The notes beneath the pieces are model-generated. The model made no database searches and was not told the DNA's origin. It saw only the letters and a program-made list of their open reading frames with translations. Shown here piece after piece: positions 23,670 to 24,741 of a stretch of DNA of 31,449 nt. Position 1 is the first letter of the stretch. Each line of letters begins with the position of its first letter. Both the position numbers and the translations under genes were made by a program. The stretch is from IMG/VR virus record IMGVR_UViG_2541047798_000008. The stretch is one strand, 5' to 3'. This DNA is from a virus (Duplodnaviria; Heunggongvirae; Uroviricota; Caudoviricetes).

Positions 23670-23706
23670 CAATAAAAAACTGTACACAATCAACAGTTTT
23701 TTATTG
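23670..23706. promoter_or_regulatory. Operator O1: perfect 14-bp inverted repeat CAATAAAAAACTGT-N9-ACAGTTTTTTATTG between the divergent repressor and cro-like genes
   Basis: Arms at 23670-23683 and 23693-23706. Confidence 0.7.
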
Positions 23707-23743
23707 TGATGCTTTTAACAGTATTTACCTGTAAAATTGAATA

Positions 23744-24145
23744 ATGATGAACGCCCTAGAAGTATCTATGTACAGAATCAGCAAGCTTCTTCAGGAAACT
23801 GGATGGAGCCAGGCTGAGCTTGCCCGTAGAATTGGTGTGACACAACAAACTGTTCAACAATGGGTCAGCGGTAAGGCTACACCTAAAGCCTCAAGTTTGG
23901 ATAAACTGGTTGAGGTTACAGGGCATCCATTGCATTGGTTTTTATTGCCTCCTGAAGAGGGGGAGCAAATTTTCACCCCTGACACGATGAAAATTGGTCC
24001 TCGTCAACGCGAACTGCTCCAGGCTTTTAGTGCGTTTCCAGAGGAAGACCAAGAAAAAATGCTTCAAGAAATCAAAGACAAGAAAAAATCAATGGAAGAA
24101 ACCATTGCCCGGTGGTTGGCGGCACAAAAAAGCCGCCGGGCGTGA
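23744..24145 (+). CDS. HTH (XRE-family) repressor, DicA/RacR/PaaR-like (133 aa)
   Basis: HTH LLQETGWSQAELARRIGVTQQTVQQWVSG; divergent from the cro-like gene; followed 27 nt later by the antitoxin-toxin pair. Confidence 0.75.
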   Translation: MMNALEVSMYRISKLLQETGWSQAELARRIGVTQQTVQQWVSGKATPKASSLDKLVEVTGHPLHWFLLPPEEGEQIFTPDTMKIGPRQRELLQAFSAFPEEDQEKMLQEIKDKKKSMEETIARWLAAQKSRRA

Positions 24146-24172
24146 CCACAGTACAAGAAGAGGAGTTATGCC

Positions 24173-24364
24173 ATGAGTACAGCCCTTTCTCCGATAGTTT
24201 CAGAATTCGAAACTACCGAACAAGAAAACAGTTACAACGAATGGTTACGCGCTAAAGTGGCGTCAAGCCTTGCAGACCCTCGTCCCTCAATTCCACATGA
24301 TGAGGTAATGGCTGAAATGGAGAATCTTATTGCTCAAATTGCTGTAACTAACAGGAGCGAGTAA
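24173..24364 (+). CDS. Antitoxin of a ParE-type TA pair (PaaA-like), 63 aa
   Basis: ATG 24173 with GAGGAG upstream; stop overlaps the toxin start (TAATG). Size and context fit PaaA-type antitoxins. Confidence 0.65.
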   Translation: MSTALSPIVSEFETTEQENSYNEWLRAKVASSLADPRPSIPHDEVMAEMENLIAQIAVTNRSE

Positions 24365-24651
24365 TGTTACCCATTTTGTGGCTACCATCTGCTCGCGATG
24401 ATTTGCGTCAGATCGTAGCCTATATTGCTAAGGAAAATATTCCTGCAGCACGCAGACTAAAAATACGGATTGAAACGTCTGTTTTAGCCCTCTCTGAGCA
24501 TCCATATCTATATCCGCCAAGTGATCGAGTATCCGGTTTGCGGGAAATTGTGGTTCACCCTAATTATATCGTTTTGTACCGAGTAGCAACTTCAAGCATT
24601 GAAATTGCAAATATTGTGCATGCCCGCCGACAATTTCCCTTCCCTATCTGA
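24364..24651 (+). CDS. parE: ParE/RelE-family toxin (95 aa)
   Basis: LWLPSARDDLRQIVAYIAKENIPAARRL...GLREIVVHPNYIVLYRV...IEIANIVHARRQFP are typical ParE motifs. Confidence 0.8.
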   Translation: MLPILWLPSARDDLRQIVAYIAKENIPAARRLKIRIETSVLALSEHPYLYPPSDRVSGLREIVVHPNYIVLYRVATSSIEIANIVHARRQFPFPI

Positions 24652-24667
24652 ACTGAACAATTTTCAC

Positions 24668-24693
24668 ACTCCCTCATTCGAGGGAGTTTTTTT
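24668..24693 (+). terminator. Intrinsic terminator after the repressor-antitoxin-toxin operon
   Basis: ACTCCCTC-ATTC-GAGGGAGT followed by TTTTTTT. Confidence 0.7.
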
Positions 24694-24704
24694 GCCCAAC
24701 ACAA

Positions 24705-24741
24705 CAATTAAAAACTGTTGACACAAAACAGTTTTTAATTG
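24705..24741. promoter_or_regulatory. Operator O2: 14-bp inverted repeat CAATTAAAAACTGT-N9-ACAGTTTTTAATTG upstream of the dicB operon
   Basis: Arms at 24705-24718 and 24728-24741; near-identical to O1 with the same 9-bp spacer. Confidence 0.7.

Follow-up and report, generated by a model that had tools for sequence, protein, structure and literature searches.

The stretch of DNA analysed here (viral record IMGVR_UViG_2541047798_000008, 31,449 nt, referred to hereafter as the window) carries at positions 23670-24741 a phage repressor gene followed by a ParE-type toxin-antitoxin (TA) pair, with a long palindrome at either end (O1 and O2). The question raised by this locus is how a single regulator might serve both a lysogeny switch and a TA pair, and what the two palindromes contribute. 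It is here that a lambda-like E. coli prophage has its immunity (lysogeny-switch) region, and the locus is a close allele of an O157:H7 system. In the account that we hold to be highly probable, this is a lambdoid immunity region in which a 133-aa repressor is the CI analogue of the prophage, with a tripartite right operator (OR), a bipartite left operator (OL) and a TA pair in the place of rexAB. A reading made from the letters alone (the sequence-only reading) had proposed that the prophage repressor and the TA regulator are one protein; this has been shown experimentally for the paralogue PaaR2, including control of a PL-type promoter beyond the TA genes (PMC8630535), and the interpretation is correct but essentially the published model of an already known system.

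The operon comprises the following elements:

23744-24145, plus strand: immunity repressor gene, PaaR1-type (open reading frame (ORF), 133 aa)
24173-24364, plus strand: paaA antitoxin gene (ORF, 63 aa; own Shine-Dalgarno sequence, GAGGAG)
24364-24651, plus strand: parE toxin gene (ORF, 95 aa; start overlapping the antitoxin stop)
24668-24694, plus strand: intrinsic terminator of the repressor-paaA-parE operon (stem 24668-24687, 8 pairs of which 5 are G-C, then T7)

Every element of the layout first claimed for the locus (helix-turn-helix (HTH) repressor, 27-nt gap, 63-aa antitoxin, ParE toxin with overlapping stop and start, strong terminator) is in place; the antitoxin stop and toxin start share one base (TAATG), and the terminator has a folding energy of -13.8 kcal/mol (z = -5.0). 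A scan found no promoter-like or terminator-like site on the plus strand between the repressor gene, paaA and parE, the only terminator lying after parE, and the sequence is consistent with a single transcript for all three genes. The claimed match to the paaR-paaA-parE arrangement of O157 is likewise borne out, in that the repressor, antitoxin and toxin are 98%, 90% and 85% identical to ECs_1069 (annotated there as 'phage repressor protein'), ECs_1068 and ECs_1067 of the Sakai prophage Sp4; the antitoxin is 65% identical to PaaA2 and the toxin 66% identical to ParE2 of Sp12/CP-933P. Sp4 is the Sakai counterpart of CP-933M, and paaR1 is presumably the proper name for the window-type system, going by what Jurenas et al. 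state of CP-933M. Because of these identities to Sp4, and because CP-933M is stated to carry a homologue of paaR2-paaA2-parE2 (Jurenas et al., PMC8630535), the window carries an allele of the second O157 system, paaR1-paaA1-parE1.

The antitoxin matches Pfam PaaA2 (PF21217, 1.1e-21) as its sole domain and PaaA2 in the PDB (3zbe, 1.5e-22), and the toxin matches Pfam ParE_toxin (4.4e-16) and ParE2 in the PDB (5cw7, 2.3e-38 over residues 1-93). Since the TA pair lacks a DNA-binding component of its own, its transcription would depend on the switch proteins. Both genes are intact and show purifying selection (ratio of nonsynonymous to synonymous change, dN/dS, 0.04-0.31 for paaA and 0.03-0.17 for parE), and antitoxin and toxin subtypes co-vary as pairs among the loci compared below. 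The paaR2-paaA2-parE2 locus stabilises a mini-F plasmid (PMC8630535), and by analogy ParE of the window is predicted to be toxic and the pair to be addictive. The proposed coupling of lysogeny to addiction is nonetheless looser than first claimed, in that for PaaR2 the TA genes are transcribed in both switch states with toxin activation undetected; the further suggestion of a defence function found no support, PADLOC-DB giving no family that matches the antitoxin or the toxin at E <= 0.01.

The repressor itself is a composite of two recognizable halves, an N-terminal 434-like HTH domain (Pfam HTH_3, 1.7e-13) and a C-terminal domain in common with PaaR2. Identity to PaaR2 of Sp12/CP-933P is 34% overall and 42% across the C-terminal 98 aa (E = 2e-20). 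At 133 aa the protein has no S24 peptidase domain (no Peptidase_S24 match in Pfam or NCBIfam), and the Sp4 repressor is listed by Asadulghani et al. as a lambdoid repressor without a peptidase domain (PMC2669165). The NCBIfam DicA model (NF007257) aligns with residues 11-130 at E = 4e-14, with a score of 52.6 bits against a cut-off of 101; because it falls under that cut-off, the repressor is not a DicA-family member. Its original description as 'DicA/RacR/PaaR-like' holds for PaaR, holds for DicA as regards architecture only, and is unsupported for RacR. A PDB search with the repressor sequence recovered 434 repressor-type HTH domains only and no PaaR2 structure, the best solved relative being the 434 repressor (E = 2e-5, about 35% identity over 57 aa). 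Gln17, Gln28, Gln29 and Gln33 of the 434 repressor align with Gln in the window repressor; in 434, it is through these residues that the ACAA half-sites are read in the 14-bp operators. The C-terminal ~50 residues may mediate oligomerisation, by analogy with PaaR2, which is reported to be octameric (PMC8630535).

We find the palindromes to be near-identical twins at the cro-like promoter and upstream of the dicB operon, as the sequence-only reading had it, each 39 bp long; its figure of 14-bp arms and a 9-bp spacer was correct, if slightly conservative. O1 (23669-23707) has 15-nt arms that are 100% complementary and 9 nt apart, O2 (24704-24742) has 16-nt arms that are 100% complementary and 7 nt apart, and the two elements are 82% identical. 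Their core, AAAACTGT-N9-ACAGTTTT, occurs in exactly 2 copies in the 31.4-kb window against 0.20 expected (3 matches arose in 0 of 100 shuffles). A dyad is contained in each arm, and a 39-bp palindrome accordingly consists of two 15-bp dyads, ACAR-N7-YTGT, in mirrored orientation (OR1 reads ACAAT-AAAAA-ACTGT). The five sites are:

23669-23683: OR1, ACAATAAAAAACTGT, about -19 of PR; invariant in 18 distinct OR sequences
23693-23707: OR2, ACAGTTTTTTATTGT, the exact reverse complement of OR1, about -43 of PR and -44 of PRM; invariant in the 18 OR sequences
23718-23732: OR3, ACAGTATTTACCTGT, free-standing, about -19 of PRM
24704-24718: OL2, ACAATTAAAAACTGT, about -43 of PL
24728-24742: OL1, ACAGTTTTTAATTGT, the reverse complement of OL2, about -19 of PL

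The window contains ACAR-N7-YTGT 7 times where 1.87 would be expected; 5 of the 7 fall inside this 1.07-kb locus, and three of these sites lie in the 109-bp ydaS-repressor intergenic region, across the PR-like and PRM-like hexamers. Neighbouring OR sites are 24-25 bp apart in the window and OR lies 1035 bp from OL; a third OL site, looked for upstream of OL2, was not found. The original assignment of O1 and O2 as operators gains comparative support. It is better, however, to treat each palindrome as a pair of adjoining 15-bp operators, and to count at OR a third site (OR3) that was missing from that reading. Strong comparative evidence argues for a lambda-like tripartite OR and bipartite OL built from 434-like 15-bp dyads, and the repressor is predicted to bind the dyads ACA(A/G)-N7-(C/T)TGT.

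The promoter elements around these sites are:

23693-23688 (-35, TTGATT) and 23669-23664 (-10, TAGGCT), minus strand: PR-like promoter, 18-nt spacer, read from sequence
23732-23737, plus strand: PRM-like -10 hexamer TAAAAT, 6 nt ahead of the repressor ATG
24718-24747, plus strand: PL-like promoter, the analogue of dicBp (TTGACA, 18 nt, TAGATT; 10 of 12 positions in the scan)

The PL-like promoter is the sole promoter-like match of the scan in 23300-25100, and the PR-like promoter, being under the scan threshold, is inferred by homology to PL, of which it is the mirror image (inverted repeat I1). OR1 and OR2 bracket the PR hexamers just as OL1 and OL2 bracket those of PL. At the repressor promoter, the -10 hexamer and its spacing to the ATG are invariant in 18 variants and the -35 is poor; the same geometry (GATAAT, 6 nt, ATG) is present upstream of paaR2 in the Sp12 intergenic sequence. 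The repressor gene has no Shine-Dalgarno sequence and its mRNA is for this reason probably leaderless, as has been established for paaR2 mRNA by 5' RACE and N-terminal sequencing (PMC8630535); the Sp12 repressor begins MQKKE, as that N-terminal sequencing gave for PaaR2. Between PL and ydfA, a leader of ~150 nt (24750-24920) is almost invariant across four heteroimmune types and partly kept in an Arsenophonus prophage, and RNAalifold gave no covariation support for a consensus structure in it (covariation term +2.11).

To place the operators in a comparative frame, we used 50 loci from viral contigs and one from Candidatus Arsenophonus in a bacterial genome collection, all of which encode relatives of the repressor (the Arsenophonus prophage is listed as L055 and L056, its contig being among the 50 viral-contig loci as well); the search of bacterial genome contigs gave this one relative only. 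Wherever the repressor has the recognition helix TQQTVQQW (49-100% identity), the locus carries sites about -75, -51 and -26 relative to the start codon, with the degenerate middle site of the Arsenophonus prophage as the one exception, and two more at PL. The site at -26, OR3, is present in every locus of the immunity type, with a single central position varying. When the 18 distinct OR sequences are compared, variation is seen at 1 of the 45 operator positions and at 23 of the 48 positions outside them (Fisher p = 1.5e-7), a statistic that overstates independence because the compared loci are mostly close relatives. The five sites keep their positions whatever separates the repressor gene from PL, be it a TA pair, a TA remnant, an unrelated ORF or nothing (a remnant of a 352-bp TA deletion in L036 and L039, a 120-aa or 123-aa ORF in L047 and L048, and no insert in Arsenophonus). 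Heteroimmune relatives lack these sites. In the L051 group, where the helix is AQQSVQKW, there are no ACAR-N7-YTGT sites and an ACTTTaaAAGT-type repeat stands in their place. The distance between neighbouring sites ranges over 23-25 bp among the loci and N7 within each site is constant, which favours the 15-bp dyad over a single 39-bp operator as the unit of recognition.

In the O157 Sp4 type (L001/L004), as in 7 viral-contig loci, OL2 and OL1 are 10 nt apart instead of 9, with one more A in the A-run; these are in effect naturally occurring spacing mutants of the two PL operators.

Four heteroimmune types can be set side by side, the window/Sp4, L002, L051 and Sp12 types. They have in common ydaT, the PL leader, the repressor C-terminal domain and homologous TA genes; the repressor N-terminal domain, the Cro analogue and the repeat found at both OR and OL are particular to each type. 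Within each of the four, the recognition-helix motifs of repressor and Cro analogue match:

Window/Sp4 type: repressor TQQTVQQW, Cro analogue AQQTVWQW
L002 type: repressor TQGAVSH, Cro analogue TQGMVSH
Sp12 type: repressor SYLSQLMSGR, Cro analogue SYLSQMASGR
L051 type: repressor QQSVQKW, Cro analogue QQVVSRW

This is the pattern expected if repressor and Cro analogue compete for the operators assigned here.

Two natural rearrangements of the TA cassette were also observed. A 352-bp deletion at a CAAC microhomology (L036, 3430-3560; L039) fuses paaA at codon ~22 to the C-terminus of parE, with the repressor gene and all five operators intact. A mosaic locus (L046, 3432-3911) combines a repressor of the window type (92% identical, same OR) with a PaaA2/ParE2-type pair, and its OL2 half-site is degenerate. 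The type-1 TA pair is found with at least 3 repressor DNA-binding domains, the cassette being mosaic.

The genes on either side of the operon supply the remaining components of the switch:

23362-23634, minus strand: ydaS-like gene (Cro analogue), divergent from the repressor gene (Pfam YdaS_toxin, 1.6e-09; PHROG 35, 8.5e-28)
22953-23378, minus strand: ydaT-like gene (CII analogue; Pfam YdaT_toxin, 7.4e-10; PHROG 163, CII-like activator, 1.2e-44)
23368-23385: YdaT-operator-like dyad TTGATTTTCATGAATCAG, spanning the ydaS end and ydaT start, the best match in the window
24925-25077, plus strand: ydfA, in the PL operon downstream of O2
25954-26005, plus strand: DicF small RNA (Rfam, 76.9 bits)
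26186-26374, plus strand: dicB (Pfam DicB, 3.7e-38)

The HTH of the YdaS-like protein is 42% identical to that of the repressor, with near-identical recognition helices (AQQTVWQW against TQQTVQQW). The YdaT-like protein is 83% identical to YdaT of CP-933P/Sp12, which was shown to activate PRE (PMC8630535). Its site OM in CP-933P is TTGATT-N6-AATCAA (PMC9986795), from which TTGATTTTCATGAATCAG departs by one mismatch, and this suggests that a PRE-type control input may be retained at TTGATTTTCATGAATCAG. On the other side, the PL-like promoter faces the ydfA-DicF-dicB operon (24925-26374, plus strand), confirming the placement of O2 upstream of the dicB operon; DicF is the sole RNA family that an Rfam search of the whole window returned in the locus.

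Work on CP-933P supplies the functional precedent. PaaR2 and YdaS footprint a 97-bp intergenic region (Jurenas et al., mBio 2021, PMC8630535); PaaR2, at once TA regulator and CI analogue of the prophage, represses PR933P and also PL933P beyond the TA genes and activates PRM at low dose, while YdaS behaves as Cro and YdaT as CII, YdaT activating a PRE-like promoter, and the switch is bistable (PMC8630535). The YdaT structure paper describes paaA2-parE2 as replacing rexA-rexB and PaaR2 as replacing CI (PMC9986795).

Taking as observed the gene identities and arrangement, the conservation of the operators and its co-variation with the recognition helix, and the promoter geometry, we propose the following mechanism for the window locus. 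Repressor bound at OR1 and OR2 would shut off ydaS and ydaT. OR2 abuts the weak -35 of the repressor promoter and is centred at about -44, like OR2 of lambda, so that occupancy of this site probably activates that promoter; the same is suggested by analogy with PaaR2. OR3 covers the repressor promoter (about -19) and would probably mediate autorepression or shut-off by the Cro analogue. Binding at OL1 and OL2 would silence the strong PL-like promoter, and hence ydfA-DicF-dicB with its cell-division inhibitors. The predicted binding of these operators by the repressor, and the predicted repression of PR and PL, draw support from the helix-operator co-variation in four types together with the experiments on PaaR2 and DicA. 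The probably leaderless repressor mRNA would run on into paaA-parE, at the place of lambda rexA-rexB, and end at the terminator before OL. A PaaR2-like octamer, formed through the C-terminal domain, could support cooperative binding or OR-OL looping over the 1035 bp.

The palindromes admit two other descriptions. Each could be a single operator, as drawn in the sequence-only reading, one dimer or symmetric unit binding the inner CTGT/ACAG across the 9-bp spacer, which would leave the locus with two operators only. The perfect complementarity of the arms over 15-16 nt is in keeping with this, and the mirrored orientation of the A/T-tracts, kept in the window, Sp4 and L048, suggests a two-fold-symmetric complex over the whole element; yet a dyad, ACAAT-N5-ACTGT, already exists within each arm, all loci keep the 15-bp dyad as a stand-alone copy at -26 (OR3), the arm distance varies over 23-25 bp (9 or 10 nt in Sp4-type OL) with N7 constant, and the 'spacer' sequence varies freely except for its -35 hexamer. 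A 434-like HTH dimer, moreover, fits half-sites 10 bp apart centre to centre and not 13-14 bp apart. We consider a single operator unlikely on these grounds, and the two descriptions converge if a tetramer binds both dyads cooperatively. Alternatively, the palindromes could act as nucleic-acid hairpins, O2 as a second terminator or cruciform behind parE and O1 as an RNA element in the cro leader. The scan did list 24704-24742 as terminator-like, and RNA folding gives -17.6 kcal/mol for O2 (z = -6.7) and -15.5 kcal/mol for O1 (z = -4.7); set against this, the stems are almost pure A-T (3 G-C pairs of 16) with the T-run absent, both elements have a -35 hexamer in the loop and a -10 hexamer abutting, heteroimmune relatives carry unrelated repeats and not long hairpins at the same positions, and OR3 lies outside any hairpin. 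Most of each palindrome lies upstream of the predicted start sites and for that reason would be untranscribed from PR or PL. We therefore rejected O2 as a terminator (A-T-rich stem, no T-run, element largely untranscribed) and regard the hairpin explanation in general as extremely improbable.

Two further explanations concern the TA pair. The paaA-parE pair could be an autonomous type II TA system that merely adjoins the repressor gene, with a promoter of its own and autoregulation through a PaaA-ParE complex. The Shine-Dalgarno sequence of paaA is compatible with such autonomy, and the cassette is found with at least 4 repressor DNA-binding domains and one repressor type carries two TA subtypes (L046), which leads us to conclude that it is mobile as one unit. 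Hallez and colleagues are reported to have found in 2010 that the paaR2 operon is fully repressed only when both PaaR2 and the PaaA2-ParE2 complex are present. Nevertheless, the 27-nt gap and the lack of any promoter-like or terminator-like plus-strand site between the genes, the absence of a DNA-binding domain from PaaA2-family antitoxins, and the report of paaR2-paaA2-parE2 as one operon (PMC8630535) all speak for dependence on the switch, and make autonomy very unlikely. Since the conserved repressor C-terminal domain, furthermore, is always part of the mobile unit, the recombination breakpoint falls within the repressor gene. The pair might instead be mainly an anti-phage (abortive-infection or exclusion) module equivalent to rexA-rexB, a role that would be compatible with the immunity-region account. 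It holds the position of rexAB in the repressor operon, and dicB of the neighbouring operon is known to protect against some phages (PMC6832061); however, neither TA protein has a PADLOC match, our literature search found no experimental report of defence, and the paralogue data show plasmid stabilisation and addiction rather than defence (PMC8630535). A principally anti-phage role is in our estimation improbable.

Several observations weigh against the lambdoid immunity-region account and should be set beside it. The PR-like and PRM-like promoters both fall under the consensus-scan threshold, OL has two sites only, and the middle OR site is degenerate in the Arsenophonus prophage, the one exception among the TQQTVQQW loci; the close relationship of most compared loci, mentioned above, tempers the footprint statistic. 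Addiction is not absolute, since paaA-parE deletions exist with an intact switch (L036, L039), and in the PaaR2 system ParE2 activation was seen in neither switch state (PMC8630535). All function is, in addition, transferred from the paralogue PaaR2, whose DNA-binding domain is unrelated in sequence.

A more far-reaching proposal combines three elements: that the repressor C-terminal domain and paaA-parE form one portable unit recombining onto different DNA-binding domains, that this C-terminal domain is a docking site for a PaaA-ParE co-repressor, and that the mirrored 434-like 15-bp pairs constitute a previously unmapped operator architecture. As a joint claim we rate it as unlikely. If the docking element were true, the lysogeny switch, and through it DicB/DicF expression, would respond directly to the toxin:antitoxin ratio. 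The wider meaning of the locus is that a TA pair can dispense with a DNA-binding function of its own and be regulated instead by a phage lysogeny switch, and that a single repressor silences the DicB/DicF division inhibitors along with the lytic genes; for the O157:H7 paralogue, the two findings have already been published. To this we add, for the second immunity type (PaaR1), an operator map open to testing and its occurrence in about 9% of complete E. coli genomes, together with evidence of a TA cassette travelling with the repressor C-terminal domain among heteroimmune prophages.

That occurrence corresponds to 510 of 5426 complete E. coli genomes, and in 509 of them 80% or more of the complete 1.8-kb locus is preserved, with the TA pair; the TA pair itself is present in 567. 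A search of isolated phage genomes gave no record with the module, and matches to the flanks only. The whole window belongs to a lambdoid prophage, of which it is the early and late region, adjoined by tRNA-Ser and mtfA, and the RefSeq record of strain AR_0017 is 100% identical across the 1.8-kb locus, with the annotated features of the region at matching coordinates. In that record the integrase gene (29391-30558), adjoining tRNA-Ser/mtfA, is annotated as frameshifted, and the prophage may therefore be defective.

Elsewhere in the window there is a second TA system, of type I, formed by hokD (16702-16857, minus strand) and a sok antisense RNA (16852-17026; Rfam sok, 113 bits). Downstream of the Q antiterminator gene, positions 12109-12699 contain matches to the STnc100 and AsxR ('anti-stx2') small RNAs and three tRNAs (Ile, Arg, Arg), arranged as in the late region of Stx phages; the interval from the three tRNAs to the nanS-p-type esterase gene (9995-11956) is, however, free of stx genes.

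Comparison with known systems situates the locus among lambdoid switches. Closest is paaR1-paaA1-parE1 of Sp4, with the same gene order, gene lengths and flanks (ydaT and ydaS on one side, ydfA-dicB on the other), a 98% identical Cro analogue and identical OR1, OR2 and OR3. The window copy differs in sitting in a non-O157 strain, in a prophage adjoining tRNA-Ser and mtfA, in its OL1-OL2 spacer (9 nt, against 10 nt in Sp4), and in TA genes that have diverged far more than the repressor gene (proportion of synonymous differences, pS, 0.63 for parE against 0.08 for the repressor gene). The paaR2-paaA2-parE2 system of CP-933P/Sp12 resembles the window locus in its operon of three genes standing where cI-rexAB would, in the divergent ydaS and ydaT genes, in the operators at a PL-type promoter beyond the TA genes, in the leaderless geometry, in the repressor C-terminal domain and in the lack of a peptidase domain. 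It is set apart by an N-terminal DNA-binding domain unrelated in sequence (helix SYLSQLMSGR there, TQQTVQQW in the window), by GTTTAGTAA-type inverted repeats in place of ACAR-N7-YTGT, and by antitoxin and toxin that are only 65% and 66% identical.

The DicA-DicC-dicBp region of the K-12 Qin prophage likewise has a short non-cleavable repressor divergent from a cro-like gene and governing both the cro promoter and the ydfA-dicF-dicB promoter (DicA at Oc represses dicC and activates dicA, and dicBp is also repressed by DicA), and the DicA-model similarity noted above spans the full length of the window repressor. Qin differs in having no TA pair between dicA and dicBp and in its operator Oc, a 20-bp repeat TTGTTAGTCATAACTAACAA. 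Phage 434 has in common with the window the residues Q17, Q28, Q29 and Q33, ACAA or ACAG half-sites, and a tripartite OR with 23-25 bp spacing, whereas the window sites are 15 bp (N7) rather than 14 bp (N6), its repressor lacks the C-terminal S24 peptidase/RecA-cleavage domain, and its OL has two sites. In lambda cI-rexA-rexB, finally, an accessory two-gene cassette lies between OR and OL and is co-transcribed with the repressor gene from PRM/PRE, as predicted for the window; the cassette of the window is a ParE-type TA pair in place of RexAB.

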